DNA of 64,000 nucleotides from contig JAFYKO010000170.1 in assembly GCA_017537515.1 (NCBI GenBank), positions 1,487 through 65,486 of the forward strand. The letters run 5' to 3'. The translations under genes and the position numbers were made by a program. The notes under the pieces were generated by a model. The model searched no databases. It was not told the origin of the DNA and worked only from the letters and a program-made list of their open reading frames with translations. Source of the DNA: Clostridia bacterium. GTDB lineage: Bacteria; Bacillota; Clostridia; Christensenellales; UBA1242. The stretch's first letter is position 1. The number at the start of each line of letters is the position of its first letter. Below are positions 2,453 to 63,745 of the stretch, one piece after another.

Positions 2453-2466
2453 AATATAGCAACAAA
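2453..2466 (-). promoter_or_regulatory. extended -10 promoter motif TTTGTTGCTATATT (minus strand)
   Basis: The reverse complement of 2453-2466 reads TTTGTTGCTATATT, the same motif seen upstream of many plus-arm genes. It lies ~100 nt upstream of the ATG at 2355. Confidence 0.45.
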
Positions 2467-2563
2467 ACACCAAACTGCGTATGGGGGTCTAATAGAAATA
2501 TCAAAAGCGGGGTTGTATTTTAAGGATATTTTTGTATATTTATTAGTGAACACGGGTGAAAGT

Positions 2564-3775
2564 ATGTGTGTAATAACTTATAATGCAGAACTCCGATTCA
2601 AGGACAAGGCAGACCTAGACTATTGGTCTAGTCTTCTTGATACGGCTAGAATTGCATATAACGAATGTGCCAACATACTTGATTCCAATAAGATACACCT
2701 GGACTTGAAATCAGTCCACAATGCCGTGTATTACATATTGAGAGAAAATTTCCCAACAATCCCTTCACAGGGTATTATCAAGATATACAAGGAATGTATT
2801 TCTGCATTCCGTTCAATCAACTCCAACGGGCATATAGAACACAAGATACTTGAAAAGAAGAATTGGTCTATGCGGTTGGACAAACGGTTGTATTCTAAAT
2901 TAAGTGTAGATAGTATATTGCTGTGTTCCGAAAAATCCAACCGTAGGGCTGTTGCAGAAATAATTAAGTTTCCAAAACTTGTGGAACTGTTCAAGAAATA
3001 CCCTACACAAGACCCGCTTATCTTCAAGCGTGACGACAAGTTCTACCTATCCATACCGTTCAATGCTCCCGAAATACCTATACAGAGCGAAAACTGCATA
3101 GGTGTGGATTTGGGCGAACGTAGGTTTGCTGTAACGTCCGATGGCATTATGTTCAACGACAAGGAATACAATGCCCGTAGGCGTAAATTACGCTACTTAA
3201 AAAGGTGCTTGCAGAAGAAGGGCACTAAATCCGCTAGAAAGCACAAATTAAAGTTGTCCGTAAAGGAACGGAATCAATCTACGGATATGTGCTACAAGAT
3301 GGCTAACGCCATTATCGGCAGCACCTATGCAAGCATTATTGTTCTTGAAGATTTAAGCAACATTAAGCAGAAAACTTCAAAAACAAAAGAAGGTTTTAAG
3401 AAAAAGAATCATAATCGTAGAATCGGGCAAGTCCCGTTCTACAAGTTCAAGCAAATCTTGTCATACAAGGCACTACTCAATGGAAAAAGAGTAGAAACAG
3501 TTTCTCCGTTTATGACAAGCCAAACTGACTGCACGACAGGCAAGAAGGACGGAACCCGTAAGAACCGCAGATTCTATTGCAAAAACGGGACTGTCCTGGA
3601 TGCCGATTGGAACGGTGCAATCAATATCGCTCAAAAGAGCAAACATCCTTTCTCGTTAAAGATACCCCTTGATGGAGCATTGAGAACCTGGAAGGCAGGG
3701 CGTGAGTCAACCGCCCAATCGTATGTAAGACTTCCTATGGAAACACAGGAAGCATTACAAACTCACTGTCTTTAG
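2564..3775 (+). CDS. tnpB: TnpB-like RNA-guided endonuclease (RuvC-like, OrfB_IS605 type)
   Basis: RuvC triad motifs are present: CIGVDLGERRFAV (D), SIIVLEDLSNIK (E) and VLDADWNGAINIAQKS (D). The Zn-finger position reads TSQTDCTTG...RFYCKNG, i.e. CxxG twice instead of CxxC. The likely start is the ATG at 2564 (MCVITYNAELRF), not the TTG at 2513. Confidence 0.85.
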   Translation: MCVITYNAELRFKDKADLDYWSSLLDTARIAYNECANILDSNKIHLDLKSVHNAVYYILRENFPTIPSQGIIKIYKECISAFRSINSNGHIEHKILEKKNWSMRLDKRLYSKLSVDSILLCSEKSNRRAVAEIIKFPKLVELFKKYPTQDPLIFKRDDKFYLSIPFNAPEIPIQSENCIGVDLGERRFAVTSDGIMFNDKEYNARRRKLRYLKRCLQKKGTKSARKHKLKLSVKERNQSTDMCYKMANAIIGSTYASIIVLEDLSNIKQKTSKTKEGFKKKNHNRRIGQVPFYKFKQILSYKALLNGKRVETVSPFMTSQTDCTTGKKDGTRKNRRFYCKNGTVLDADWNGAINIAQKSKHPFSLKIPLDGALRTWKAGRESTAQSYVRLPMETQEALQTHCL

Positions 3776-3943
3776 GTTGTGGGTAGTTGACAGCGGTCCC
3801 GACTTCAATGCACAGGTCCTTGCTTGTTTCCAAATGGAGCAGGTTTCTGCGACACCCTGTTTTCGTAGTTATAGGTATTGACTATAACAGAAAACCCCCG
3901 CCACGTTCCGTGGCAGGGAACCCCTATGGCTAATTGGGTGAAA
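3650..3943 (+). ncRNA. expected position of the TnpB omega-RNA (reRNA) scaffold and guide; not demonstrated
   Basis: In characterised TnpB systems the guide RNA overlaps the 3' end of tnpB and extends to the right end of the element. Here there is a 168-nt tail with the 3900-3914 hairpin. This call rests on position only. Confidence 0.3.
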
Positions 3944-4279
3944 TCAAGACCGCTTGTTAAATTCTTCAAAGAACTTTTCCAGGCGGGAATTGTTCTTGTC
4001 CCACCTGTCGTAAGCGATTTTGAGTAAGATGGTCCAGGAAGCGTAAATCCCAAGAATAGCGAACGCAACGGTCTGCGTAACGGGTCCGTTCCCGCAGGTG
4101 GCGTATGCCAGGGCTGTCGGGACGGAGAGCCACAGGAACGCTGCGAGAGCCACCGCAGCGATACCGAATACGGAGAGGATTGCCCACTTGACTATCAGCC
4201 CGACGGTCATACTTATAAATTCTGCCATACCTAACACGAAGTCGGTGGCTTTGCAAAGGATTTTGTTGAGAGTTTTCAT
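3944..4279 (-). CDS. small membrane protein (111 aa, about 3 predicted TM segments)
   Basis: Hydrophobic stretches MTVGLIVKWAILSVFGIAAVALAAFLWLSV and VAFAILGIYASWTILL. The other frames here (3966..4394, 4098..4499) look like overlap artefacts. Confidence 0.6.
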   Translation of the reverse strand: MKTLNKILCKATDFVLGMAEFISMTVGLIVKWAILSVFGIAAVALAAFLWLSVPTALAYATCGNGPVTQTVAFAILGIYASWTILLKIAYDRWDKNNSRLEKFFEEFNKRS

Positions 4280-4306
4280 TGTTGCAGTCCTTGTTAAGTG
4301 GGTTCG

Positions 4307-4462
4307 CTATCCTTCGGGAGTTATACCGAGGACTACCGTTATTCGGTACAGCACATACACAATGAGTGCTAATTTGCCAAAAGCCCATAAGCACTCAACT
4401 AGCTCACTGAAAGCCTTTAAAGCGTCATCGGAGTTGGTGTTTCTATTGTTGATGTTTTTCAT
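4307..4462 (-). CDS. small membrane peptide (51 aa), first gene behind a promoter/leader cassette
   Basis: Below the ORF-track size cutoff. My translation: MKNINNRNTNSDDALKAFSELVECLWAFGKLALIVYVLYRITVVLGITPEG. GAGGATA lies 6 nt upstream of the ATG at 4460-4462. Confidence 0.5.
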   Translation of the reverse strand: MKNINNRNTNSDDALKAFSELVECLWAFGKLALIVYVLYRITVVLGITPEG

Positions 4463-4529
4463 ATCGTTATCCTCGTGGTTGTTTACACCTATAATATAAC
4501 AAAATACCTACTGATTGTCAATAGGTATT
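4463..4529 (-). promoter_or_regulatory. hairpin/-35/extended -10/leader cassette (minus-strand copy)
   Basis: Reverse complement: AATACCTA-TTGACAATCAG-TAGGTATT-TTGT-TATATT-ATAGGTGTAAACAACCACGAGGATA. TTGACA at 4516-4521 and TATATT at 4493-4498, spaced 17 nt. The 8-bp stem arms are 4503-4510 and 4522-4529. Confidence 0.7.
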
Positions 4530-4554
4530 ATTAAAATAATTTCTTACGAATATG

Positions 4555-4971
4555 TTATTTTACGATTTCGGCTTCCTGGACGTTGGTCGGGGTTCCACCG
4601 CCACGTTTTAGGATTTCAGCCTTGATACGTTCCGCATCGTCTTCGGAAATCGTGGTCGTGTCAATCTTTTCTGCGGGCTTCTCAACGTCCACGTTGGACG
4701 TATCTACGTTGTGACCCGACAGGGCTTTCATAAAGTCCAAGCGGACCCTAAACGATTCGTTGCGTTGCTTTGACAGGTCTATGAGTTCACGGACAGACGC
4801 ATCGTCCAGGTTTACCTTTTGGGCTATGGCGTTGTCTATATCGTCCATAGAATGCAAAAGGGCTTCCATTCCGTCTATGGAATACTCCGTAATGTTGAGC
4901 ATTTTGCGGTTAAGACGGGCTTTGATAGCGTCTAGTTCATTTTGCGATATGGTGGCGGGCTGATTATCCAT
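4555..4971 (-). CDS. hypothetical acidic protein (138 aa)
   Basis: Minus-arm ORF rich in D/E. The ATG lies 6 nt after a -10-like TAGATT, so the mRNA appears leaderless. Confidence 0.6.
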   Translation of the reverse strand: MDNQPATISQNELDAIKARLNRKMLNITEYSIDGMEALLHSMDDIDNAIAQKVNLDDASVRELIDLSKQRNESFRVRLDFMKALSGHNVDTSNVDVEKPAEKIDTTTISEDDAERIKAEILKRGGGTPTNVQEAEIVK

Positions 4972-5006
4972 ACCTATAATCTAACAAATTATCTGCAATC
5001 GGTCAA
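4972..5006 (-). promoter_or_regulatory. sigma-70-type promoter TTGACC-17-TAGATT abutting the start codon
   Basis: Reverse complement: TTGACC (5001-5006), a 17-nt spacer ending AATTTGT, TAGATT (4978-4983), then ATAGGT and the ATG at 4971. Confidence 0.55.
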
Positions 5007-5064
5007 TAGCAAAAGACACCCGCCCTTGCGGGCGGGAGCCTTACTATGCTTCTCAACAAGAGAA

Positions 5065-12798: not shown

Positions 12799-13008
12799 CT
12801 AACGGAAAAGCCATTCTTCAAATCGGGCGTTGCTTTCGTCTTCAAGCGATTGCAGGATTTCCAGGTCCGCAATACGCAGGGCACCACAGCGGGCATCCAC
12901 CGCTGTCCTGGCGACGGCATAGAGAGTGTTTATGTAGAGTTTCTGCTTGTCTTCGGGCAGCATAGCGAGCATACCCGAAATATCGGTCTGTGGTTCTGTC
13001 ATACCCAT
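12799..13008 (-). CDS. hypothetical protein (69 aa; probably starts at the second ATG at 13002 as a leaderless mRNA)
   Basis: The -10 TATATT (13009-13014, minus strand) abuts the ATG at 13008. The second ATG (13000-13002) sits 6 nt after the -10. Confidence 0.5.
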   Translation of the reverse strand: MGMTEPQTDISGMLAMLPEDKQKLYINTLYAVARTAVDARCGALRIADLEILQSLEDESNARFEEWLFR

Positions 13009-13107
13009 AATATAACAAAATACCTATTGTTTAGCAAGTATGTAAGCAAATTGTAAACAAAAATTTTAATAAGCCCTGTTGACTGCGGGTGGGTATTTAG
13101 TTATATT
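13009..13107. promoter_or_regulatory. back-to-back divergent promoters separating the two transcription arms
   Basis: Minus strand: TTGCTA (13032-13037), 17 nt, TATATT (13009-13014). Plus strand: TTGACT (13079-13084), 17 nt, TATATT (13102-13107), followed by a leader ending CCACCGAGGA. Confidence 0.65.
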
Positions 13108-13144
13108 ATTCTTACGTTCAACCATTCCACCGAGGATTAAGTGT

Positions 13145-13525
13145 ATGGAAAAAGTAATCGCACCGTTCGTCGGGTTCTACCCCGACTTCAAGCACCCGTT
13201 TTCCGTGGCTGAAAGCCACAATACCGCCCTGGGCTACATTATGGAAGCCCGCAAGGAACACGGCTTCATTATCAAGACCCTGCCCGAATGCTACGGGTTC
13301 GTAGTCAAGTCCGTGGACGGCAATTACCGATTTGCCGACCGCAAGGACGCTTACGCTGTCGCAAAGGCAGCGGGGCAGTTCAAAGAAGACTACCCGAACA
13401 CCAACACCCTTGAATCCTATATGATTAACTACGACGGGGCAGAACTATCCCCGCTGTGGAACCTGTCCGAAAAGGTGTGTCGTGCTTTCAGCGGATTAAC
13501 GGTGGACTCCGATATTGAAATTTGA
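13145..13525 (+). CDS. hypothetical protein (126 aa)
   Basis: ATG at 13145, 8 nt after CCGAGGA. First gene of the plus arm. Confidence 0.65.
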   Translation: MEKVIAPFVGFYPDFKHPFSVAESHNTALGYIMEARKEHGFIIKTLPECYGFVVKSVDGNYRFADRKDAYAVAKAAGQFKEDYPNTNTLESYMINYDGAELSPLWNLSEKVCRAFSGLTVDSDIEI

Positions 13526-20434: not shown

Positions 20435-21742
20435 ATGATAACGAAGATTAAATTGCATAACTTTCAGTGCCACAAGGACCTGGAATTGGACCTTGGGCGT
20501 TCCACCGTATTGCAGGGTGGTTCCAACCACGGAAAGACAGCCGTCCTACGTGCATTCTATTGGGTCCTGTTCAATGATGCTCCGCACGACTTTGTGTCCT
20601 ATTGGGCACAGAAGAAAACCAAAAAGGGCTTCACTTTCAAGGACGACGAATACACGTCCGTCACTATCGTTGTGGACGGGCACGTTGTAGAACGCAAGCG
20701 TTCCAACACGTTCAACGGCTATATCGTTGACGATACCATTTACGAAGCACTCCGAACAGACGTGCCCGAAGCGGTCACGAAGTTATTCAACCTGGCAGAC
20801 GCTTCGGTGCAGAAGCAGTTTGACGCTCCGTTCCTGCTCGCCACGACACCTGGCGAAGCGTCTAAATACTTGAACGAACTTGCGGGGCTTGAATGCGTGG
20901 ACGGCATTCTAACGCTCGCAAAGCGTAAGGTTGCCGACACGTCCGACCTGGTAAACACGGCAAAGGAAACCGTTGAAAGCCTGGAAAAGTCCGTCGGGTC
21001 TTTCAGTTGGGTAAAGGAAGCCGAAGCCCTGTATGAAAAGGCACAGGCTACGCAGCCGAAGATTGAAGAACTTACCCGTAAGTTGGAAGCACTCAACCGC
21101 ACCATTTCCGACTACAAGGCTATCAAGAACTATCCCGAAATCCCCGATTGGCTTGAAAACGGGGACAAGTCCGCAGTGATTAAGGGCTTGGAAAAGGAAC
21201 TTGAAATCTGCAACAACTACGTGGGCACCTGCCGTGTTCTCTCACGTGTGAACCCCGCCCTGGAAAAGTTGAACGCCCTGGTGTTCCCAAAACCGCCCAA
21301 GCATACCGAAAAGGAACTTGAAGCCCTGTCGGGTTCTATTGAAAAATACGGTAAAGTCGTGTCCAACTATCGCAGGTGCAGGTCCGTATTGAACGCCCTG
21401 GACGACTTGCAGGAACCGAAGCCGTGCAAGTGGGAGGGTCGCTTGCGTCCGCTTGTGCAGTCTATCCGAAACTACGAAGAAGTCACGGAAATCCTGGGTT
21501 CTGCAAGCACCGCCCTTGACAAGATTTCAAAACTCAAGGCTCCGAAGCCGTGCAAGTGGACCGAAAAGGATTTTGAAACCCTGGTCCGCTCCATACGGAA
21601 TTACAGCAGTGCAAAATCCACGATTTCCGACTGCAACGATTACCTGGACGACGCTTACAGCGATTTGGAGGGTGTAGCCTGCCCCGTCTGCGGTCGCCCG
21701 CTTACCCGACGTGACATTTTGCTGTATGTAAGCAAAATATAA
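20435..21742 (+). CDS. Rad50/SbcC-like ATPase, N-terminal half (Walker A + coiled coil + terminal CxxC zinc hook)
   Basis: MITKIKLHNFQCHKDLELDLGRSTVLQGGSNHGKTAVL (SMC/Rad50 N-terminus with P-loop), followed by long helical repeats. The ORF ends in GVACPVCGRPL. Confidence 0.7.
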   Translation: MITKIKLHNFQCHKDLELDLGRSTVLQGGSNHGKTAVLRAFYWVLFNDAPHDFVSYWAQKKTKKGFTFKDDEYTSVTIVVDGHVVERKRSNTFNGYIVDDTIYEALRTDVPEAVTKLFNLADASVQKQFDAPFLLATTPGEASKYLNELAGLECVDGILTLAKRKVADTSDLVNTAKETVESLEKSVGSFSWVKEAEALYEKAQATQPKIEELTRKLEALNRTISDYKAIKNYPEIPDWLENGDKSAVIKGLEKELEICNNYVGTCRVLSRVNPALEKLNALVFPKPPKHTEKELEALSGSIEKYGKVVSNYRRCRSVLNALDDLQEPKPCKWEGRLRPLVQSIRNYEEVTEILGSASTALDKISKLKAPKPCKWTEKDFETLVRSIRNYSSAKSTISDCNDYLDDAYSDLEGVACPVCGRPLTRRDILLYVSKI

Positions 21743-21756
21743 CATATTATTTTAAC

Positions 21757-21837
21757 AATACCTGTTGACAATCGGCAGGTATTTTGTTATATTATAGGTG
21801 TAAAGGAAAGACAACCACCCCAACCGAGGATAGCCAA
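21757..21837 (+). promoter_or_regulatory. hairpin/-35/extended -10/leader cassette
   Basis: AATACCTG (21757-64), loop TTGACAATCGG, CAGGTATT (21776-83). TTGACA at 21765-70, 17 nt, TATATT at 21788-93. Leader: ATAGGTGTAAAGGAAAGACAACCACCCCAACCGAGGATAGCCAA, then ATG. Confidence 0.75.
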
Positions 21838-22170
21838 ATGGAAAAGACCTACACCGAAAAACTCGCAGACCGCTACAACGCTCATTGTGCTGCAAAGAAG
21901 ACCGCCCGCACCGACAGGTTCGTGGTGGTGCCCGTCACTGACGACGGCTTCGGTGGACGTAGCCCCAGGGTTTCTACTTTCGTAAGAGCCACCCCCAACG
22001 GCTGCGAAATCAACCAGGGCGATACCCCGTGTTCCTATGTCATTTCCACCGCCAACGAAATCGTCCGCAACTTGAAGGGTTCTATGGGACTTGATTTCGT
22101 CTGCGTGACGGAAGTTGAATTTCACGATATGGTCCTGGAAATGCTCGCCCCCCGCAAGGCTGCGGTGTAA
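21838..22170 (+). CDS. hypothetical protein (110 aa)
   Basis: The ATG at 21838 follows the cassette's SD. The track start at 21784 reads through the leader. Confidence 0.6.
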   Translation: MEKTYTEKLADRYNAHCAAKKTARTDRFVVVPVTDDGFGGRSPRVSTFVRATPNGCEINQGDTPCSYVISTANEIVRNLKGSMGLDFVCVTEVEFHDMVLEMLAPRKAAV

Positions 22171-24588: not shown

Positions 24589-25803
24589 ATGCTCATTACT
24601 AAAAAAGAATCCAAGCAGTTGCGTTATTTCGCCCGTGCCAACTATAAGGCAGATGTCAAGGGCACCACTGCCGAAGACGGCAGCAAGGTAAAGCACAGGG
24701 ATTTCCCTGTCTTCGGGCTTTCCTATGACGAAAAGAAAGCCGACAAGGGTATGGTTGAAATTACCAATATCCAGGTCCTTTACAAGCCTTTTACGGGCAC
24801 CACGTTCGCAGAACTTATGGAAGCCTTGAACGATGTCCTCGGCTCCGACGACGTGGGCGAAAAGGTTGAAGCGGTGGAACAGCATTATGAGCCTTGCCTG
24901 CTTCACGGTCCCGACTGCACCCAGGAACCCTTACCGCCAGGTCCACCGATTGTGCAGCCGATAGCCAAACCGCAGGAAGAACCCGAACACCTGTTTGGTC
25001 CTATGTCGCATCGTGGCGTGGTCGGGGATGCCTTGGACTTCTTTAAGAATGTCAAGTTGGTGGACAAACCACAGGCTGCTGAAAACCCGCCAAAGGAATC
25101 CGCAAGTGTCGCAGACATTCCCGAAGAAGTCAAGGAAAGCGTCCTGGAAGTGGCAGAAACCGTAACCACCCTGGTTCACCCCGAAATGCAGGTTGTCAGC
25201 AAGGAAATCAAGGACCTGTCCGACGACGGGACGCTTACGGTTGACGTTAAGGCGGTAGCCAACAACCCCGTGGATAGCGTGGACGTGCATATTGACGTGA
25301 ACAAGTTGAAAGAAAAGAACGCCCAGGAAGATACCGTGGACGCTTCGGAATCCGCAAAGTTCGTGGAAGAACACGAGGCACCCGTTCTTGAAGTAAATGC
25401 CCAAGACGCAGAAATCCCCGTGGTGGAAAACCTGGAAGAAGCGAAGCAGGTTGCCGAAGAAACGGGCACACCCGTAATCACTGCGGAACAGAAGCCTGCC
25501 GTCCACCTTGACGCTGCTGCGGACGGGACGAATGACGTGACTATGGTCGTTGAAGCCCCGAAGCCGAAGAAACTTTCCCGTGCGGAACTTTACGACCTGC
25601 AAATGAAGTGCGGGGTTATGCGGTTGGCTACCCTTTATGGCGAAGACCCCGACACAGGACTAGACGTGCTTATGAAACTTTATCCCGACGCTGCTACCCG
25701 ACTCAATGAAGTGTATGCTGCTGACGGGATTAAGACATACACGATTACCGAAGAAGCAATCAAGAAAGCCTACCCCGACGAATACGCAGCACTCCGCAAA
25801 TAA
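24589..25803 (+). CDS. hypothetical acidic protein (404 aa)
   Basis: The start is taken at the ATG at 24589, after GGAGTG. The protein has a long E/D/P/V-rich middle region. Confidence 0.6.
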   Translation: MLITKKESKQLRYFARANYKADVKGTTAEDGSKVKHRDFPVFGLSYDEKKADKGMVEITNIQVLYKPFTGTTFAELMEALNDVLGSDDVGEKVEAVEQHYEPCLLHGPDCTQEPLPPGPPIVQPIAKPQEEPEHLFGPMSHRGVVGDALDFFKNVKLVDKPQAAENPPKESASVADIPEEVKESVLEVAETVTTLVHPEMQVVSKEIKDLSDDGTLTVDVKAVANNPVDSVDVHIDVNKLKEKNAQEDTVDASESAKFVEEHEAPVLEVNAQDAEIPVVENLEEAKQVAEETGTPVITAEQKPAVHLDAAADGTNDVTMVVEAPKPKKLSRAELYDLQMKCGVMRLATLYGEDPDTGLDVLMKLYPDAATRLNEVYAADGIKTYTITEEAIKKAYPDEYAALRK

Positions 25804-25820
25804 AAATTAAAAATTTTTCA

Positions 25821-25902
25821 AATTACCTATTGACAGTCAGTAGGTAATTTGTTATATTATAGGCGTAAAGAGAAGACAACCACTTCAACCGAGGATAGCA
25901 AA
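25821..25902 (+). promoter_or_regulatory. hairpin/-35/extended -10/leader cassette
   Basis: AATTACCTA (25821-29), loop TTGACAGTCAG, TAGGTAATT (25841-49). TTGACA at 25830-35, 17 nt, TATATT at 25853-58. Leader: ATAGGCGTAAAGAGAAGACAACCACTTCAACCGAGGATAGCAAA, then ATG. Confidence 0.75.
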
Positions 25903-26175
25903 ATGAATAGAGCCGAATTTAACGATTGGTTTTACAAGAATATCGTGATGACGAAATGCGACAATGACAACGGCATTTTTGAGTTCACGATTGATGGCAG
26001 AACGTTCACGACAAAAAAGGGTAAAGCAGGTATTACTTGCCTCTACTACGTTTCTGTTTATGAAACCACGTCGGGTAAAAAGTGCGTTGCTACCCGTATC
26101 TTGGGCGAAAACACTGCTGTTCAAGGAACGATTTACGCTGTCCTGTATAAGCAAATGGTGGTGGCTAATGGCTAA
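25903..26175 (+). CDS. hypothetical protein (90 aa)
   Basis: The ATG at 25903 follows the cassette's SD. Confidence 0.6.
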   Translation: MNRAEFNDWFYKNIVMTKCDNDNGIFEFTIDGRTFTTKKGKAGITCLYYVSVYETTSGKKCVATRILGENTAVQGTIYAVLYKQMVVANG

Positions 26176-34058: not shown

Positions 34059-35654
34059 ATGAAGAATAATCCGAACCAAGAAATCCATACCGACTATCGG
34101 GCAAACGACATTTTCAAGCCCATTAACGCTAACAGGTTGGCAGAATCCATCCATTATGATTTTGTCATTACCCAGGAAATGCTTGACAAGTTTATGGAAC
34201 AGAATCCTGGGTACACTACAATAGGTATTGGCGTTCTGCTTAACAGCAATTCTGATGGGACAAAAAATGATACCTACGCTACCCTGGCGAAAGCACCTGT
34301 AAGCGTATTTATTGCTGCGAAAACTCCATCTAACATTGTTTATGATTTTACGGATTCTTTTATAGCTACTTCAAGTAGCATTTTGGACATTTCGGATTTT
34401 ATGGAGAACGGTCAATACACTGTCACTAAAACAGATGGTGTTGTGGATGTCTATTCGGAATATCCGTATAGTGCAAACATCACAGGTGGTGTGAATTTCC
34501 ATAGCACCCCCAAGGCACCCTTGACAGTCGGTGTAGTTCAATATAATGGCGTTATTCGTATCGGTGCTTACAAGACCACAGGTAGTTCGCCTATTAACGT
34601 ATTCCGAAACGGTGACATAAAGGTCATTACACAGGAACTTGTCAGTGGTTATGGATTTTCGGATGTGCTGACAAGTGCCTCACAAAACCCTAGCCTGTTC
34701 GTAGCTGATTGGATGGGTGGCGGTAGCAGCGGTGACTTGGGATATGTCATTAGTGATACAGATACAGAAGTCTTTGGGTTATATGGTCGTTTCGTTGAAT
34801 CCGATAAATTAGGTACACGTGCTAACTTGTTAGTTAGTTCTTACTACGGTATATCCACATATTACAGGAGTCAAGCTAATGCACTTGGTTTGATTTTCAG
34901 TAATGCTATGGATGGGGTAAATATCACAGTTCACACTGATGGAACAATAACAAAGAGTAGTACACATAACAACGGGGCTATAGATAAAGTAATATTAGTG
35001 GATATGCATAAACCCGCTATCCCTGGGTTAGTGAGTACTGCTACAACTATAGCACAATGCATATCCGAATATAGAAGTGGAACTTTAAGTAAACTAGATA
35101 GTATGTACACTGCCTCAAATAGCTTTGACTTTAAGGGGGCAACTATTTTAGATTGGTACACTTGGGAAACTATTGCAAAAGAGGGTTACAACGAGTTTGT
35201 ATCTAACGATAATGATGAATTATATATAAACGCTGATTCATTGTCGGAGGGTATTGTATATGAAGTTAATGTTCATCTTATGAACATAGATAGCAGGAGG
35301 GGCGGTGATTCGGTAGTTACATCCACATCAACCGAAATAAAGCCTGTGACCCCCAATGAACCTATGGATGTTGTGACAAGCGTTTCTAGAGAAACATTTG
35401 ACACTACCCATCGAGACAAGTGGGCTATGTTGTTTTGTAACAATTACGGAGTAGTTCAACCATTAAAAGGGTGGGCACCACCTTCCGAAAGTGTTGACGC
35501 ATCGCCTAGCACCAAGGTGTATATAAAATTTAGTTCTTTCACTAGGTATGGTGGTTTTGACGTGGGTAATCGTTTAAGGATAAACCACGATGCTGCCATA
35601 GGTAAGGTTTTATTTTTTAAATTAAACGGTTACATATATGTGCTAGGTTATTAA
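34059..35654 (+). CDS. fibre / receptor-binding-like protein (531 aa), AT-rich
   Basis: S/T/G/N/Y-rich sequence with beta-rich character. Composition drops abruptly in GC relative to the flanks (by eye). AAAGAGG SD upstream. Confidence 0.6.
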   Translation: MKNNPNQEIHTDYRANDIFKPINANRLAESIHYDFVITQEMLDKFMEQNPGYTTIGIGVLLNSNSDGTKNDTYATLAKAPVSVFIAAKTPSNIVYDFTDSFIATSSSILDISDFMENGQYTVTKTDGVVDVYSEYPYSANITGGVNFHSTPKAPLTVGVVQYNGVIRIGAYKTTGSSPINVFRNGDIKVITQELVSGYGFSDVLTSASQNPSLFVADWMGGGSSGDLGYVISDTDTEVFGLYGRFVESDKLGTRANLLVSSYYGISTYYRSQANALGLIFSNAMDGVNITVHTDGTITKSSTHNNGAIDKVILVDMHKPAIPGLVSTATTIAQCISEYRSGTLSKLDSMYTASNSFDFKGATILDWYTWETIAKEGYNEFVSNDNDELYINADSLSEGIVYEVNVHLMNIDSRRGGDSVVTSTSTEIKPVTPNEPMDVVTSVSRETFDTTHRDKWAMLFCNNYGVVQPLKGWAPPSESVDASPSTKVYIKFSSFTRYGGFDVGNRLRINHDAAIGKVLFFKLNGYIYVLGY

Positions 35655-36370
35655 TGTTGCTACGTGTAATTCTGTCCCACAACCAAACGGAAAATATCCG
35701 AAAGTTTCCGCACGACCAACAGACCGTGTTCGTGTTTGACGCTCCGACATCCGAAGACATTAAGGAATGTGAAGCCCTGGGCTGTCGCTACGTCCTTATG
35801 CCGTCGGCAGGCCACAGGGGTATGAACAGAAACACGGGCTTGCAGTATATCTTACAGACGTTCTCCCCGAACTACGACGACTACGTTGAGTTCTTTGACG
35901 GGGACCGCTACCCGACGGACTACAACCCCGAAAAGGTCCAAAAGATTATGCAGGACAGTCACATTGATTGTATGCTTTATTCTTGCGAACACGATGCCCG
36001 TCATAAAAAGATTTTCGTTCCGTTGAGCGGTGCCACGTTGGTAGATACGGGGACACTTTGCAACCCGTTCTATGCCTGCGGGTTCTGTATGCGTGTGGGT
36101 GCTATCCAGGATATTATGGCATACAACCACGGCTTTCTGTTTGAGCCACGCTTTGACAAGTGGGGCAGCGAAGACCAATTCCTTGGGCTTGAATGCGAAC
36201 ACCTGCATTTCCGTGTAGCTATGACGAACGAAACGCTACTTAACGGCAGCGTAGGTGGCGACTCCGACCAACACCAGGACTATCGGGAATCCTTGCAGAC
36301 CTACGTTGACTTGATACGTGAACACGACTTCCCGATACGGAACAAGCCCCGTGATTTTGTAGTAGTGTAA
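35654..36370 (+). CDS. GT-A fold (family 2-like) glycosyltransferase
   Basis: VFVFDAPTSED...NRNTG...FFDGDRYP (DxD)...WGSEDQFLGLE (ED motif), in the canonical order. Confidence 0.5.
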   Translation: MLLRVILSHNQTENIRKFPHDQQTVFVFDAPTSEDIKECEALGCRYVLMPSAGHRGMNRNTGLQYILQTFSPNYDDYVEFFDGDRYPTDYNPEKVQKIMQDSHIDCMLYSCEHDARHKKIFVPLSGATLVDTGTLCNPFYACGFCMRVGAIQDIMAYNHGFLFEPRFDKWGSEDQFLGLECEHLHFRVAMTNETLLNGSVGGDSDQHQDYRESLQTYVDLIREHDFPIRNKPRDFVVV

Positions 36371-36395
36371 ACTAAATTTAACATACTATTTTAAC

Positions 36396-36477
36396 AATAC
36401 CTGTTGACAATAAGCAGGTATTTTGTTATATTTAGGGTGTAAAAGAAAGACAACCACCACAAGCGAGGATAATCCCA
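36396..36477 (+). promoter_or_regulatory. hairpin/-35/extended -10/leader cassette
   Basis: AATACCTG (36396-403), loop TTGACAATAAG, CAGGTATT (36415-22). TTGACA at 36404-09, 17 nt, TATATT at 36427-32. Leader: TAGGGTGTAAAAGAAAGACAACCACCACAAGCGAGGATAATCCCA, then ATG. The upstream ~20 nt (TAACATACTATTTTAAC) also match the 21730 copy. Confidence 0.75.
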
Positions 36478-36786
36478 ATGATTAAGACCGACTACCAAAC
36501 CGTAAAGAACTGCCCGTTCTCCTTGGACGTTCGCTACAATATCAATAATGCTTCCAAGGTCGGACGTATCGCAAAGAAGTTCGCAGATACGAAAATGACA
36601 TTTGGCGGTTTCTATTGCTACGATGCTGTTTACGGCTTCAATTCCAAGGAAAAGGCTGACGCTTGCAAGGCTGCTCTTGAAGAAGCATTCAAGGGCGTGG
36701 ATAGCGTAGGTGTCGGAACCGTCACGGACACCTATATGGAAAAGGTGGAAGCGGAAATCTACTTTATGGAACACGAAAAGGTTTAA
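36478..36786 (+). CDS. hypothetical protein (102 aa)
   Basis: ATG after the cassette's SD. Confidence 0.6.
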   Translation: MIKTDYQTVKNCPFSLDVRYNINNASKVGRIAKKFADTKMTFGGFYCYDAVYGFNSKEKADACKAALEEAFKGVDSVGVGTVTDTYMEKVEAEIYFMEHEKV

Positions 36787-36998: not shown

Positions 36999-37565
36999 AT
37001 GGATATTGAAGCAAGAGTTAAATTACCGCCCTCGGACATTCCGAACCGAAACGGCAAGGTCTATCCGAGGGACGCTATTCTAAAAGCCTGCGAAGAAAAG
37101 GGTATTACTGTCCACGACGAAATGCAGGTAAAGGTTCCTGCGGGAGCCTTGGAACAGACACACACGATTACGTCCGTGAAGTTCTCCAAGGATTTCGGGC
37201 ATATCAGCCACCGCAACAACACGATTATCCTGGATGATGTTCTTGCCGATTTCTTGGCAAAGGACGAACAGCTGCGTGTGGTTACGCTCGGCTTCCCCAA
37301 GCCTACCGACCCGTATATGCCCGACACCGAAGAAGAACTTTTGCACAAGGCAGGCGTGGGCACAATCAGCACTATCAAGAACGTGGGCGGGGAGTATATT
37401 GCTTCTGTGACGATTGACCCCAAGATGCCCTGTGGTGATACCCTGCTCAAAATTCTTTCAAGCAATGTCAAGTTGGGCTTTGCTTTCGGTGGATTCGGTG
37501 AACAGGTCGGTGATAACCAATACCAATTTACGGAAATCACTAGCGTAGCCCTGCTACCCGAATAA
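36999..37565 (+). CDS. hypothetical protein (188 aa)
   Basis: Plus-arm ORF with GGGGG upstream. No firm motif. Confidence 0.6.
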   Translation: MDIEARVKLPPSDIPNRNGKVYPRDAILKACEEKGITVHDEMQVKVPAGALEQTHTITSVKFSKDFGHISHRNNTIILDDVLADFLAKDEQLRVVTLGFPKPTDPYMPDTEEELLHKAGVGTISTIKNVGGEYIASVTIDPKMPCGDTLLKILSSNVKLGFAFGGFGEQVGDNQYQFTEITSVALLPE

Positions 37566-47026: not shown

Positions 47027-48508
47027 ATGCTCCAACGTGTAAAAGTAGATATTAGTGAAGAACGTAGGCTTTTGGCAAATATGATTATGTCCACGCCCCT
47101 TTTGGCTAAATGCCGAAAGTCGTGTGACCCAATCCTGTTTGAAAGCAATATGGGGAAAATTGTTTCGTCGTGGGTCTTGACTTTCTATGACCGCTATGGC
47201 GAAGCCCCCAAAGAAGCAATTAGCGATATTTTTGCAAATAGGGTGTCGGAACTGAAAGAAGCCGACGGGGATATGGTCAAGGCGTTCCTTGACACTGCGT
47301 CCGACGAATGGATGCCGACAAACGAATCCCTGGCTACCGACAACGCTATCAAGTATTTCCAAAAACGTTCGCTTGCCCTGCTTACCGAAAAGTTGAACCG
47401 CTCCGTCCAAAGCGGTGACGTGTCTAGCGGGTATCACGCTATTGCGGACTTTACGAAACCCGACGTGCGACAGGCACAGGTAGTGAACTTGTTTAGGGAC
47501 GCTTCCATTATCGCCAACGCATTTGAGAACGACGAAGAAGAAATCTTCACGATGCCAGGTGTCCTGGGTAGCGTAATCGGTCCGTTTATCCAGGAAGATT
47601 TCGTTGCCGTTATCGGTCCCCCGAAAAGCGGTAAAACCTGGTGGCTTATGACGATTGCGGTCCAGGCTGCTTTGCAGGGTAAGCACGTCCTTTACGTGTC
47701 CCTGGAAATGTCCGAAAAGCAGGTTGTCCGTCGTTTTTGGCAAATGCTTACGGGTTCGTCCCGCTATGGCGAAGAACTGCATTACCCCGTTATGGTCTAT
47801 GACGACGAGGGCAACGCTCAACTTGCAGACGTTAGCGAGCCGTCGCATAGAGTGGACGCAAGCCTAGAGGGTATTGAAAAGGCTCAAAGGGCATTCCGCA
47901 AGATTACCCGCAACGACAAGTTTGAACTGCGAACGTTCCCGACGGGAACCCTGTCTGTAAAGGGTCTTGAAGCCGAACTGAAAGATATGGAAGTTTACAG
48001 CGGGTGGGCACCCGAAGTAATTTGCGTTGACTATGCCGACATTATGGACCTGGGACCTGGCAGCGACGAACGTGAAAAGATTAACCGCTGTTGGAAAGCC
48101 CTACGTGGTCTTGCAAGCACCCGAAAGTGTATGGTCGCTACCGTGTCACAGACGGGTCGTGCAACCGTCGGTGGCGAGCAGGACGCAGCCGAAAACCAGG
48201 TGTCCGAAGATATTCGTAAGGTCGCCCACGTGACGAAGATGATTACGATTAACCACACGCCTGCGGAAAAGAAGCGTGGCATTACCCGCCTAGCCTGCAA
48301 CACCACCCGTGATGGTGCCCCCGTCCAGGATTCTGTTGTCTGCACAACCTGTCTTGCAATCGGCAGACCTTATATGGAATGCGAATTGCTGTCACGTGTG
48401 GATATGAGCCAGGAAGAACAATGGGACGGCAGCGAAGACGACGAAAACAATATGCCCGCCAAACGGTCGGGCAGAAGAACAGGGAGCCGTGGACGTTCCC
48501 GTAGGTAA
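47027..48508 (+). CDS. DnaB-like replicative helicase
   Basis: VIGPPKSGKTWWLM (Walker A), VLYVSLEMSEKQVVRRF (DnaB H1a/SLEM motif), CVDYADIM (Walker B). Basic C-terminal tail. Confidence 0.8.
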   Translation: MLQRVKVDISEERRLLANMIMSTPLLAKCRKSCDPILFESNMGKIVSSWVLTFYDRYGEAPKEAISDIFANRVSELKEADGDMVKAFLDTASDEWMPTNESLATDNAIKYFQKRSLALLTEKLNRSVQSGDVSSGYHAIADFTKPDVRQAQVVNLFRDASIIANAFENDEEEIFTMPGVLGSVIGPFIQEDFVAVIGPPKSGKTWWLMTIAVQAALQGKHVLYVSLEMSEKQVVRRFWQMLTGSSRYGEELHYPVMVYDDEGNAQLADVSEPSHRVDASLEGIEKAQRAFRKITRNDKFELRTFPTGTLSVKGLEAELKDMEVYSGWAPEVICVDYADIMDLGPGSDEREKINRCWKALRGLASTRKCMVATVSQTGRATVGGEQDAAENQVSEDIRKVAHVTKMITINHTPAEKKRGITRLACNTTRDGAPVQDSVVCTTCLAIGRPYMECELLSRVDMSQEEQWDGSEDDENNMPAKRSGRRTGSRGRSRR

Positions 48509-55232: not shown

Positions 55233-55305
55233 GGACGTGTAGCACAATGGTTGGTGCGACGGACTCATAACCCGTTGGTTGCAGGTTCAAGTCCTGTCAC
55301 GTCCA
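55233..55305 (+). tRNA. tRNA with CAU anticodon (elongator Met or lysidine-modified Ile2 type)
   Basis: Hand fold, 73 nt. Acceptor GGACGTG/CACGTCC, T8. D arm GCAC-AATGGTTG-GTGC. Anticodon arm ACGGA-CTCATAA-CCCGT with an A31-C39 mismatch. Variable loop TGGTT. T arm GCAGG-TTCAAGT-CCTGT. Discriminator A. No encoded CCA. The G1-C72 pair argues against an initiator. Confidence 0.85.
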
Positions 55306-61217: not shown

Positions 61218-61257
61218 GTAATTACTAATTTTACGTTTGTAAAACGCCACAGGTGGC

Positions 61258-61464
61258 GAAACGAACCTGGGAGGTTGTGCGGTTTCCTAATTAAAAACGC
61301 TCCGATAAGGCTCCCGTCGGACCCAGGGGCTTCACGGGAACCGCAACCGTGGCTAATGGCAAGTGACCTGTAGGACTCTTGCGGGGGAAGTTCCCCACGG
61401 GACGTTGCACTAGATTGAAGTGCAGAATAGCCCCAACGAAAAGAGTAGGGTCGCTTTTGTGGTA
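61258..61464 (+). ncRNA. candidate structured RNA 'element B' (~200 nt), related to element A
   Basis: GC-rich with no ORF. Interleaved helices CCTGGG (61266-71)/CCCAGG (61322-27) and GGTTGTGCGGTTTCC (61273-87)/GGGAACCGCAACC (61336-48) form a pseudoknot-like arrangement. Also CCGTGG/CCACGG and the GGGGA-AGT-TCCCC hairpin. Confidence 0.4.
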
Positions 61465-61504
61465 GGGCAGGTTGATTGCAACGACCTGCCCGCTTTCATT
61501 TTAT
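61465..61504 (+). terminator. rho-independent terminator closing the endonuclease/ncRNA unit
   Basis: GGGCAGGT (61465-72) pairs with ACCTGCCC (61484-91). GCTTTCATTTT follows. Confidence 0.7.
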
Positions 61505-61525
61505 TAAAAATTTTTACTTTTCCTA

Positions 61526-61601
61526 TTGACAGACGCTAGATAATTAGTTATATTTATGGTGTAAAGAGAACAACCACTCACTACAACCGAGGTATAACTC
61601 T
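61526..61601 (+). promoter_or_regulatory. promoter/leader cassette (hairpin arms degenerate in this copy)
   Basis: TTGACA (61526-31), 17 nt, TATATT (61549-54). Leader: TATGGTGTAAAGAGAACAACCACTCACTACAACCGAGGTATAACTCT, then ATG. Confidence 0.65.
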
Positions 61602-62018
61602 ATGGCAGATACAGCCTTTGTCTTTAAGCAAGCAATCGTCACGTTCTATCGCAAGTCTAACAAGCAGAACACACCCCCCGAAGATATGTGGTGTAAGGTT
61701 TGCGACAATGAAACGTCGCTGTCCACTGTGTTGGAAATGGAAATAGGCGAATACCTTGACAAGATTTCAGCAGCCAAGAGTGAAATTATGAAACTTATTA
61801 CGGGTGGCTTGAACCTGTTTAGCCCCTCTCCCGCAGGCGTATCGGGGATGCACTATCAAAACCAATCCATTACGGTAAGTTGCGGGTATAGCGTGGAATT
61901 GAAGTATTGGCGAACCCTTAACGGGGTCATTATCCGAATTAACCGAACTGACGGGGATGCCGATGTGAACTATTTGACTATCCTTGTAAAGTCCATCTAC
62001 GAAAAAAAGGAAGACTAA
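61602..62018 (+). CDS. hypothetical protein (138 aa)
   Basis: ATG after the cassette's SD. Confidence 0.6.
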   Translation: MADTAFVFKQAIVTFYRKSNKQNTPPEDMWCKVCDNETSLSTVLEMEIGEYLDKISAAKSEIMKLITGGLNLFSPSPAGVSGMHYQNQSITVSCGYSVELKYWRTLNGVIIRINRTDGDADVNYLTILVKSIYEKKED

Positions 62019-62236: not shown

Positions 62237-62686
62237 ATGGCTACTCCCGATAAAGCAACCATCTATAATCTACACGACACCCTTTTCAACCATTACAACG
62301 TCCTGGACGTGTTGGCTACCTATATAGCCCACAAGGAAGACGTTAAAAATATGTTCTGCGACCACTCCATAGATATTATGGATATTCGCCTGGAACCTAA
62401 CCTGGATTGCGTAGTCGTCCATTACACGCTTGTATCGGACGGCAGGGTTCGTTATAGGACTATCTACCCGATGCAGTGGGAATTGTTCCTGGAACTCACG
62501 AAAGACCCCGTAAAGCAGGGGCACAACCCCTGGACCTTGCAGGACTACGGGAACGACTGCCGACCGTTCCGTGGAATGCGTAAAATCAGCGGACCGCCTG
62601 TCCGTGTCGTCACGCCCGACGAAGCATACAGAATCCTGCGTGAGCAGGCTGCTGCGTTTAACGACGAAGATACGGAAAGTAAATAA
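62237..62686 (+). CDS. hypothetical protein (149 aa)
   Basis: Plus-arm ORF with AAGGAAC upstream. Confidence 0.6.
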   Translation: MATPDKATIYNLHDTLFNHYNVLDVLATYIAHKEDVKNMFCDHSIDIMDIRLEPNLDCVVVHYTLVSDGRVRYRTIYPMQWELFLELTKDPVKQGHNPWTLQDYGNDCRPFRGMRKISGPPVRVVTPDEAYRILREQAAAFNDEDTESK

Positions 62687-62704
62687 TTTTATGCCATAAA
62701 TCTG

Positions 62705-62733
62705 TTGCCAAAATGTTGGTAATTTGTTAGATT
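62705..62733 (+). promoter_or_regulatory. sigma-70-type promoter TTGCCA-17-TAGATT upstream of the sigma-like gene
   Basis: The spacer ends AATTTGT, as in the 4972..5006 promoter. The leader carries AAACCGAGGAA. Confidence 0.5.
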
Positions 62734-62782
62734 TATACTACAACCTAGAAACCGAACCTGTTAAACCGAGGAACCCCGACCC

Positions 62783-63745
62783 TTGAAACCGACCGAAGAA
62801 CTGTATTTCCAATATGCAGGGGTAATCACTAGCGTAGTCAACAAATACGCCTACCAATGCCCCGACCTGGCTGACGATTTATTGCTCCAAGCACAGTTGC
62901 TTTTTTGTCAAGCCTGTGTGACCTACGACCCCGACCACCCTAGCAAGGCTTCATTTGAAACCTGGCTGCGTAATAAACTCCAAGACATTTCCGCTCTTGT
63001 GAAAAAGGCTACCAGGGGTCCGTGCCTTATTAAAACGGAAAAGCCGAAGAAGACCGAAACTGCCGTCAAGCGTAAGCGTGTGTGGGCGAGAAAATCCGTG
63101 AAACCGCAGTGTTCCGAAGACAACACAGCGACGAACATTATGCTGTTGCAGGAAATTGCGGATAACGTGAAGCGTGAACCCGACGATGACCCGATTGAAC
63201 TTTCCGACGTGACCTGCGGGTATATCCTGGAAGATTACAGCAAGAAACTTTCCGACGGGACAGCAGACGGGCACGACTACCCCAAGGCTATGTTGCCCTA
63301 TATCCGTGCCCTGCGTGGCGATTCCTTGCAGGTGTTCAAGGATTTCTGTGAGGGTCGCCTTGAACGTGAACCCCGTAAGAACCTGTCGTTCGCAAAGCAG
63401 AAAGCCCGTGGAATACTTTCCCCGTCCTATATCTACAACAAGTTCTACAAGGAAAAGGGTTGGTCCCGCTCCCGTGTAGAAAACGCCTGGAGGGGTCTGC
63501 GTGGAATGTTGAAGAACTACGTGGACGGCAAGATGCCTACAATCATTAACAATCCGTCCTTGCGTAAGAACAAGGTCCACAGGGGCGAAAGCAGTTTTGA
63601 AAAGGCAAGCAGGCTTTTTGAAGAACGTCACAGCCTGTCGTTCAACACCTATCGGGTCCTGTGCAAAAAGGGCATTCTGCATAAAGAGAATGTTGCCGAA
63701 AACGAAGACCTGTCCAAATACCTTTTACACACGTTCGCTTACTAG
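62783..63745 (+). CDS. sigma-70-family (ECF-like region 2) transcription factor, TTG start
   Basis: VVNKYAYQCPDLADDLLLQAQLLFCQACVTYDPDHPSKASFETWLRNKLQD fits the sigma region 2.1-2.4 pattern (DL.Q...L......yD......F..WL). Region 4 is not clearly recognisable. Confidence 0.5.
   Translation: MKPTEELYFQYAGVITSVVNKYAYQCPDLADDLLLQAQLLFCQACVTYDPDHPSKASFETWLRNKLQDISALVKKATRGPCLIKTEKPKKTETAVKRKRVWARKSVKPQCSEDNTATNIMLLQEIADNVKREPDDDPIELSDVTCGYILEDYSKKLSDGTADGHDYPKAMLPYIRALRGDSLQVFKDFCEGRLEREPRKNLSFAKQKARGILSPSYIYNKFYKEKGWSRSRVENAWRGLRGMLKNYVDGKMPTIINNPSLRKNKVHRGESSFEKASRLFEERHSLSFNTYRVLCKKGILHKENVAENEDLSKYLLHTFAY

Follow-up and report, generated by a model that had tools for sequence, protein, structure and literature searches.

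A Repeated Cassette, Probably a Promoter–Terminator Composite of the PeSL Type, Ahead of ORFans in an Uncultured Jumbo-Phage Clade

Introduction

We describe a repeated intergenic cassette of about 110 bases in a 64,000-nucleotide stretch of DNA (contig JAFYKO010000170.1, positions 1,487 to 65,486; called the window below), which is a fragment of an uncultured jumbo-phage genome from a clade without characterised members. Its layout is an A/T-rich upstream tract, TTGACA, a 17-nucleotide (nt) spacer ending in TGT, TATATT, a short A/C-rich leader and a strong Shine-Dalgarno sequence. With a probability of roughly 0.72, we read the cassette as a phage early-gene module of the PeSL (promoter-early stem-loop) type, that is, as a composite of promoter and terminator. 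The evidence lies at the sequence level and comprises the anatomy of the cassette, the pairing and covariation of its stem, the dependence of the hairpin on its context and the positions of synteny breakpoints.

PeSLs are known from the T4-type phages RB49/phi1, T4/PST and KVP40/nt-1 as repeated intergenic elements with a near-consensus sigma70 promoter, an A/T-rich upstream region, a Shine-Dalgarno sequence and a stem-loop that falls into five positional subclasses, one of them overlapping the -35 box. They sit before ORFans in hyperplastic regions and mediate modular exchange; promoter and terminator activity was shown by lacZ fusions, and cassette-bounded mini-circles were shown as well (PMC2839356, PMC4122927). 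The window cassette displays every sequence-level feature of a PeSL: the promoter spacing, the A/T tract, the stem-loop, the Shine-Dalgarno sequence with its start codon and the location before ORFans. The original prediction for this DNA, a terminator-like hairpin merged with a promoter and a conserved leader, had not recognised this architecture of the T4-type phages (PMC2839356, PMC4122927). In the literature that we searched, mentions of PeSLs mainly concern T4-type phages; mentions elsewhere were not examined.

Results and Discussion

A search of the window for TTGAC-N16-GTTATATT with at most 2 mismatches returned 13 matches against 1.6 expected, a number that none of 100 shuffles reached. 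Nine of the matches are members of the family, and a profile built from the 84 distinct copies described below recovered exactly the same nine and no others. The first T of their -35 boxes lies at 4521(-), 5006(-), 13037(-), 13079(+), 21765(+), 25830(+), 36404(+), 61526(+) and 62705(+), and we name the copies by these positions. All nine are intergenic and aimed at a downstream open reading frame (ORF) that starts 0-49 nt past the -10 box, with 13037(-) and 13079(+) forming a divergent pair. Six copies had been predicted, each of which is found where it was placed; 5006(-), 13037(-) and 62705(+) had been missed. The downstream proteins had been called unrelated to each other, in agreement with a best pairwise E-value of 0.6.

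Public viral contigs were scanned twice, once anchored on the promoter core and once on the -10 box plus leader. These scans turned up about 20 cassette-bearing contigs, three of which measure 213-216 kb, and gave at least 84 distinct copies in the viral contigs of relatives. The fetched parts of two of the ~215-kb contigs hold at least 19-20 distinct cassettes each, or about 20 per genome. No copy was found in 185,579 GTDB species genomes, searched for a host or a prophage. The phage genes in the window include a family A DNA polymerase with a UDG domain, a DnaB-like helicase, a second helicase, an SbcC-like exonuclease and one tRNA. Since T4-type phages carry a family B DNA polymerase, the window phage is not T4-type. 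Its polymerase is less than 25% identical to that of any annotated phage, and megablast of 20 kb of the window against annotated phages gave no match. The tRNA gene (55233-55305, +; Rfam RF00005, 67 bits) lies inside the replication-gene region.

A constant 17 nt separates the -35 box from the -10 box, and a TG stands ahead of the latter in most copies. TTG of the -35 box, TTA of GTTA and the A, T and T of the -10 box are fully invariant among the 84 copies; the invariant and near-invariant columns together cover TTGAC of the -35 box, G-T-A and T-G of the spacer, and TTA-ATT of G-TTATATT. Upstream of the 5' arm of the hairpin lies an A/T tract with the consensus ATTTTAAnAATA, for example AAAAATTTTTAAA. 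An independent consensus scan ranked the four best copies as the top sigma70-type promoter matches of their regions (11/12 plus TG). In these four, the predicted TTGACA/17 nt/TATATT core with TG is present as described, while 61526 and 13079 carry AG in place of TG. At 5006(-) and 13037(-) the ATG of the ORF lies exactly at the predicted transcription start, 6 nt past the -10 box. This suggests leaderless mRNAs, and the predicted start site therefore gains indirect support. An ORF start adjacent to the -10 box is kept in relatives, for example in L022 (TAGATT-aagggt-ATG). T4 early promoters have an 'über UP/-35/TGn/-10' layout with extra conserved positions besides (PMC2988021). The cassette has the same layout and, judged by its sequence, is built like a strong phage early promoter of the sigma70 type. 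A Bacteroidota-type promoter (TAnnTTTG) was rejected, because TAWTTTG in the spacer falls short of it by one base and the phage has strong GAGGA Shine-Dalgarno sequences.

About 40% of the copies carry, 5' of the -35 box, bases that can pair with a near-invariant spacer motif, AGGTAWTT. The pairing of this 5' arm with the spacer gives a hairpin of 12-16 bp and -13 to -17 kcal/mol that runs into TTTTGTTATATT. Four of the nine window copies fold significantly (-13 to -17.4 kcal/mol, z -3.2 to -5.7). The first is the full cassette at 21724..21840 (+), which consists of an upstream stop and A/T tract, the -35 box (21765-21770), TG and the -10 box (21788-21793), the leader and the ATG at 21838 of ORFan 21838-22170. 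Its hairpin at 21757-21783 reads AATACCTGTTGA CAA TCGGCAGGTATT (-16.0 kcal/mol, z -4.3). The cassette at 25792..25905 (+; -35 25830-25835, -10 25853-25858, ATG 25903, ORFan 25903-26175) forms a 15-bp hairpin with a 3-nt loop at 25819-25851 (-17.4 kcal/mol, z -5.7), and that at 36363..36480 (+; -35 36404-36409, -10 36427-36432, ATG 36478, ORFan 36478-36786) a 10-bp hairpin with a 7-nt loop at 36396-36422 (-15.5 kcal/mol, z -3.3). The fourth, at 4460..4560 (-), has a shortened leader (-35 4521-4516, -10 4498-4493, ATG 4462, 51-amino-acid ORF 4462-4307) and its hairpin at 4529-4503 (-13.0 kcal/mol, z -3.2). The hairpin had been predicted to hold the -35 box in its loop. It is indeed present, yet its stem is longer and takes up part of the -35 box: in 21765, 25830 and 4521(-), the TTGA pairs with spacer bases 2-5, which makes 12-15 contiguous pairs and reduces the loop to 3 nt. 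The copies 61526, 13079 and 13037(-) fold no better than their shuffles.

The 3-nt loop of the best copies would also fit an N4-like DNA hairpin promoter, read by a virion-delivered phage RNA polymerase in place of a host sigma70 promoter, and a jumbo phage of uncharted biology with many large unannotated proteins offers room for such an enzyme. We regard this as highly improbable. The hairpin is missing in about one third of the copies and in one whole related phage, whereas TTGACA/17 nt/TATATT is invariant; its centre lies at about -31, away from the start site; the long A/T-rich stems enclose a loop whose sequence is not conserved; and an RNA-polymerase-like protein was not detected in the window.

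The alignment of the 84 copies argues for selection on pairing. Standard pairs fill 68.8% of its cells, a share that drops to 32-45% once the 3' partner is shifted by 1-3 columns. For covariation the score is 0.169 compared with 0.132±0.007 in shuffles (0 of 500 as high), and 36 cells are changed on both sides, compared with 19.4±3.3 in shuffles. Pair 1 occurs as A-T 53 times, as G-C 12 times and as G-T 4 times (Fisher p=7e-7, or 4e-5 after clustering by flank similarity), and pair 7 as A-T 35 times and T-A 19 times (p=6e-4, 0.016 clustered). Only two positions of the 3' arm are variable, and both covary with their partners. In L040, even an otherwise invariant pair is changed on both sides (ATGCCTA/TAGGCAT). 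The stem covariation that was first noticed on a few window copies is thus borne out on 84 distinct ones by pairs 1 and 7 and by the covariation score.

The two arms are conserved asymmetrically, the 3' arm (AGGTAWTT) above 90% and the 5' arm at 55-83%. The number of contiguous stem pairs is 0-1 in 28/84 copies and at least 8 in 30/84, and the related 215-kb phage UViG_3300031998_000006 keeps the spacer motif, as TAGRTAAAGTGT, and lacks the complementary 5' arm. The hairpin is therefore not the constant feature that it was taken for in the original prediction. Because the 3' arm is nearly fixed even in the copies and the phage that have no complementary 5' arm, we conclude from these sequences that the spacer motif is under a constraint of its own, and that the 5' arm comes to complement it wherever pairing brings a benefit. 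The promoter is the core element and the terminator an optional add-on, since about one third of the copies are nearly stemless and UViG_3300031998_000006 keeps its promoter without the 5' arm.

That the hairpin was probably selected as a terminator for the upstream unit follows from three observations, namely the orientation of its T-tract, its dependence on the upstream context and an either/or pattern with separate terminators. First, a consensus scan scored the hairpins at 4529-4503(-), 21757-21783, 25819-25851 and 36396-36422 (10-15 pairs, 3-4 of them G-C) as terminator-like, because the stem runs straight into the tail TTGTTATATT; the T-tract after the hairpin is found on the sense strand only. 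Second, with the strand of the upstream gene assigned by a codon-usage score, copies behind a co-directional gene that ends within 70 nt (n=47) have a median of 8/8 stem pairs and -10.6 kcal/mol. The medians are 6/8 pairs and -5.85 kcal/mol where the co-directional gene ends farther off (n=22), and with a divergent gene (n=6) the median is 3/8 pairs and all hairpins are weak (-2.4 to -7.6 kcal/mol). The difference in strength between near co-directional copies and the rest is significant (p=0.006). Third, a separate GC-rich terminator lies at most 140 nt upstream of 10/37 hairpinless co-directional copies, compared with 1/34 of the hairpin-bearing ones (p=0.007). Together with the covariation and the folding energies, these data uphold the earlier proposal of a sigma70-type promoter combined with a terminator-like hairpin.

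Two window copies exemplify the replacement of the hairpin by a separate terminator. The promoter-only copy 5006(-) at 4969..5040 (-) has TTGACC / 17 nt / TAGATT with TG, and its ORF (4971-4555), a leaderless candidate, begins 6 nt past the -10 box; ahead of it stands a GC-rich intrinsic terminator at 5036-5019 (-), CCCGCCC-GCAA-GGGCGGG-TGTCTTTT. The copy 61526 at 61465..61604 (+) has no built-in hairpin (z +0.7; -35 61526-61531, -10 61549-61554, AACCAC in the leader, ATG 61602) and is preceded by a GC-rich 10-bp hairpin with 7 GC at 61465-61491. In the divergent pair, 13037(-) at 13000..13037 (-) is promoter-only (TTGCTA / 17 nt / TATATT, no hairpin, z +0.2) and drives an ORF from 13008 or 13002 to 12799, which starts 0-6 nt past the -10 box and is the second leaderless candidate. 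Its partner 13079(+) at 13038..13147 (TTGACT / 17 nt / TATATT, ATG 13145) has a hairpin that is not significant (z +0.7). Finally, the degenerate copy 62705(+) at 62685..62785 combines TTGCCA / 17 nt / TAGATT and TG with an alternative hairpin in a different register (-11.9 kcal/mol, z -2.5), and leads into a 320-amino-acid ORFan with the start codon TTG at 62783.

One may ask if the cassette is a promoter only. The inverted repeat would then be a by-product of palindrome duplication or concerted evolution, or the operator of a dimeric phage or host protein that covers the -35 box and spacer and shuts off or modulates all early promoters at once. AGGTAWTTTGT is near-invariant even where the complementary 5' arm is missing, which points to a pairing-independent, sequence-specific role, possibly a protein contact; moreover, many co-directional copies have no terminator at all, and related copies are not independent. 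However, a homodimer operator predicts equal half-sites without covariation, while the arms differ in conservation as described and show compensatory changes from A-T to G-C and from A-T to T-A. The inner 'half-site' opposite TTGA is complementary in a minority of copies only, often via G·U pairs that exist only in the sense-strand RNA. A shut-off operator also does not predict that the hairpin depends on the orientation of the upstream gene and on the lack of another terminator. We therefore judge this explanation unlikely and favour the promoter–terminator composite.

The leader was the second element for which a function had been proposed, as a translational operator, a processing site or a regulator-binding site. 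Seven window copies have GAGGA followed by an ATG 30-49 nt past the -10 box; the leader of 4521(-) carries a 14-nt deletion relative to the other copies. The 3' half of the leader, AACCGAGGA, is not specific to the cassette as had been thought, but precedes 31/82 non-cassette genes with a GAGGA Shine-Dalgarno sequence. By its distribution it is the general Shine-Dalgarno and ribosome-binding context of this phage clade. The leaders are composed of A 44%, C 25%, G 19% and T 12%, with zero G from -15 to -4 relative to the Shine-Dalgarno sequence, and fold worse than shuffles (mean -3.0 kcal/mol, mean z +0.58). These data give the proposal little backing; what remains of it is AACCAC, the only part enriched in cassettes. 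Counted only in copies that were not ascertained through their leader, it occurs within 50 nt of the -10 box in 29/39 cassette leaders, compared with 11/82 non-cassette ribosome-binding sites. Its distance to GAGG is fixed at 7-8 nt and that to the -10 box ranges over 8-20 nt; since only the former is fixed, AACCAC is positioned on the ribosome-binding site and not on the promoter. In the most economical reading, the leader would be an open, efficient translation-initiation region that is carried along with the cassette, and AACCAC possibly has a specific role as an enhancer or operator.

A conserved 5' leader stem (GGUG/CACC) was discarded as a candidate because it is not kept across the copies and the leaders are less structured than shuffles. 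Rfam 15 gave no match at any cassette or leader, and over the whole window only the tRNA at 55233-55305 reaches the gathering score. A separate observation concerns the ~240-nt GC-rich stretch at 61225-61465 (+), between the gene end at 61217 and the terminator at 61465-61491, which holds no convincing ORF. Together with this terminator it folds at -100 kcal/mol (z -2.0), and it has no match in Rfam even at E<=1; by these features it may be a phage non-coding RNA. A 6-nt complementarity of the leader ACAACC to this region is within chance expectation and was dropped.

The promoter–terminator model needs neither AGGTAWTTTGT nor AACCAC, and the spacer motif is kept without the hairpin. We also considered that the spacer motif (-24 to -14) and AACCAC are sites for phage factors that switch the whole early regulon, the former in transcription, for a spacer-binding modulator of the host RNA polymerase, and the latter for a RegA- or RegB-like early shut-off by translation or mRNA decay. 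This addition is unlikely. If true, it would turn the cassette into a three-layer control module in an uncharacterised jumbo-phage clade.

In the promoter–terminator model that we prefer, each copy would be a very strong promoter for the host RNA polymerase with its primary sigma factor, by virtue of the UP-like tract, the consensus -35 box, the 17-nt spacer and the extended -10 element (TGT-TATATT). Transcription would start about 7 nt downstream of the -10 box. The promoter would be followed by a short leader, unstructured, poor in G and with a strong Shine-Dalgarno sequence; in two copies there would be no leader. Near the end of an upstream co-directional gene, the 5' arm would have evolved to complement AGGTAWTTTGT, often with the first spacer bases pairing with TTGA in addition. 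Transcripts that come in from upstream would then fold into the 12-16-bp hairpin followed by the U-rich transcript of TTTTGTTATATT, which would form an intrinsic terminator or attenuator. Such a hairpin would insulate each small ORFan unit and shield the promoter from read-through. Finally, the conserved cassettes may serve as homology patches and portable expression signals around which ORFans come, go and get replaced.

Searches of Pfam and PHROGs with the nine ORFs driven by the window cassettes gave nothing significant beyond one weak PHROG hit of unknown function. The 320-amino-acid ORF after 62705 had looked like a sigma factor by eye, which Pfam, PHROGs and PDB sequence searches did not support. 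Cassettes in tandem flank single ORFs: 5006(-) and 4521(-) lie 485 nt apart, and L003 has three in a row. Homology to relatives ends at 4471 (L003, L017, L031), 4484 (L007, L022, L040), 21841-21850 (L005, L027, L049, L025), 25905 (L001, L025, L049) and 36461 (L008), and these positions are the 3' edges of four cassettes. In total, 18 of 212 alignment ends fall into cassettes (2.1% expected, p=8e-7), which is suggestive of an enrichment of breakpoints there. The far end of the replacement at 2466-4470 lies at a minus-strand motif of the second promoter family described below. Within this segment, which is replaced in L003, L017 and L031, a 420-amino-acid ORF (2513-3775, +) stands among minus-strand genes; it may be a mobile or recently acquired gene.

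These breakpoints, and the many dispersed copies (about 20 per ~215-kb contig), could also be those of a mobile or recombinogenic DNA element, MITE-like (miniature inverted-repeat transposable element) or recognised through its DNA hairpin by a phage recombinase or homing enzyme; its likeness to a promoter would then be incidental or secondary. Indeed, the PeSL authors speculated on a protein that targets the stem-loop (PMC2839356). We hold such an element to be quite unlikely. MITEs insert both ways, whereas each of the nine window copies lies between genes and runs in the direction of its downstream gene; the palindrome is internal, and the cassette ends show no terminal inverted repeats or target-site duplications. 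The columns with the highest conservation coincide exactly with the sigma70 contact elements, the cassettes have no associated transposase or recombinase, and the single junction examined is a microhomology deletion inside an ORF.

Several points weigh against the PeSL-type composite. Cassette copies are related by descent, which inflates the covariation and context statistics, and the p-values weaken after clustering. Once redundant, near-identical loci are collapsed, the breakpoint enrichment amounts to only 6/134 (p=0.067). At the one junction read base by base, that of L025, the break falls at an AAAGA microhomology 13 nt into the ORF and outside the cassette, so that a cassette-by-cassette recombination was rejected as the origin of this ORF indel. 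The stems are A/U-rich with only 3-4 G-C pairs and weaker than the stand-alone terminators of the phage. Furthermore, 27/37 hairpinless co-directional copies also have no detectable separate terminator, and termination is therefore optional or dispensable at many sites. Recognition of TTGACA/TATAAT-type promoters by the host is an assumption, and the GTDB genomes gave no match to the cassette. Promoter activity and strength, transcription start, termination, early timing and recombination are inferred here, as are all functional claims of this work, which opens no long-standing question.

Besides the cassette, the window contains a second promoter-like family, TTGACRCT-N6-CTATAT, of which the motif search found 10 copies against 0.55 expected (13522, 20409, 23709, 43095, 46986, 48901, 50117, 53543, 55860 and 60065, all +). 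A further probable copy lies at ~2470-2447 (-). Members of this family stand ahead of replication-type genes, namely the exonuclease at 20435, the DnaB-like helicase at 47027 and the DNA polymerase at 50176. With just 9 nt between TTGACG and TATAT(N), the motif does not qualify as a standard sigma70 promoter; by analogy with MotA-box and PmSL promoters it is a candidate middle-class promoter that would need a phage factor.

Three further observations concern variable or repeated genes. The ORF 34059-35654 (531 amino acids, unknown function) loses nucleotide homology to L021 (96% identity), L004 and L034 at 34745 and regains it at 35663. Its C-terminal ~300 residues (34746-35662, +) are, by this pattern, a replaced or hypervariable module. 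The 188-amino-acid ORF 36999-37565 (+) is present in the window and missing from the near-identical L021 and from L004, a single-ORF indel with no bounding cassette. Two direct-repeat pairs of 44-60 nt and 75-78% identity, 24431-24490/59584-59643 and 23737-23780/59054-59097, join genes at ~23.7-24.6 kb and ~59.0-59.7 kb, which suggests that these two genes are paralogous. They share a GGAxCACCGC segment that we take, as a guess only, to point to methyltransferases.

Comparison with Known Systems

Correia elements of Neisseria are short dispersed repeats with promoter and terminator-like signals that alter the expression of neighbouring genes. Unlike them, the window cassette has neither terminal inverted repeats nor a target-site duplication and keeps a single orientation to its downstream gene. 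With intrinsic (Rho-independent) terminators it shares a hairpin followed by a U-rich tract, on the sense strand only, and a distribution complementary to that of the GC-rich terminators of the phage. It differs from them in that its hairpin has only 3-4 G-C pairs, an interrupted U-tract (UUUUGUUAUAUU) and, in 36404, a 7-nt loop. Judged by these features, the built-in hairpin is probably only partially efficient and would attenuate transcription more than fully terminate it.

T4 early promoters (PMC2988021) likewise bring all four RNA polymerase recognition elements together, have extra conserved positions and drive small prereplicative genes. They differ in their GTTTAC-like -35 box, compared with TTGACA in the window; AGGTAWTT is specific to our clade, and early timing is deduced here.

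The closest relatives in design are the PeSLs. Both systems have an A/T tract, a TTGACA/N17/TATAAT-type promoter, a stem-loop able to overlap the -35 box and a Shine-Dalgarno sequence. Both are placed before small ORFans in variable regions and form tandem series with one cassette per ORF; in both, indels and replacements adjoin the cassettes and degraded or 'half' copies occur (here the 28/84 that are almost stemless). A second, middle-type promoter family stands alongside in each case, cf. the PmSLs of nt-1. On the other hand, the window phage, with its family A polymerase, is not T4-type, a label that describes the taxonomic range of PeSLs and not a mechanistic requirement. The window stem is A/T-rich (AATACCTR/YAGGTATT), while PeSL stems are Gn-loop-Cn or A3-4G3-loop-C3T3-4. 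In the window cassette terminator and promoter share bases, with the promoter spacer motif serving as 3' arm and the extended -10 region as U-tract, and the leader contains the conserved AACCAC. PeSL activities were shown experimentally, whereas the window cassette is known from its sequence.

The comparison extends the range of PeSL-type cassettes past the T4-type phages, into an uncultured clade of ~215-kb phages that is unrelated to them, and does so with a compact design in which the 3' arm of the terminator doubles as promoter spacer and the U-tract as extended -10 region. In practice, annotators of these metagenomic phages could use the cassette to chart about 20 early transcription units in each genome; it would also define a regulon of host-takeover ORFans and offer a set of very strong insulated promoter parts. 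Its likeness to the PeSLs suggests that large lytic phages have in general, and probably by convergence, come to use portable expression modules for the turnover of ORFans.

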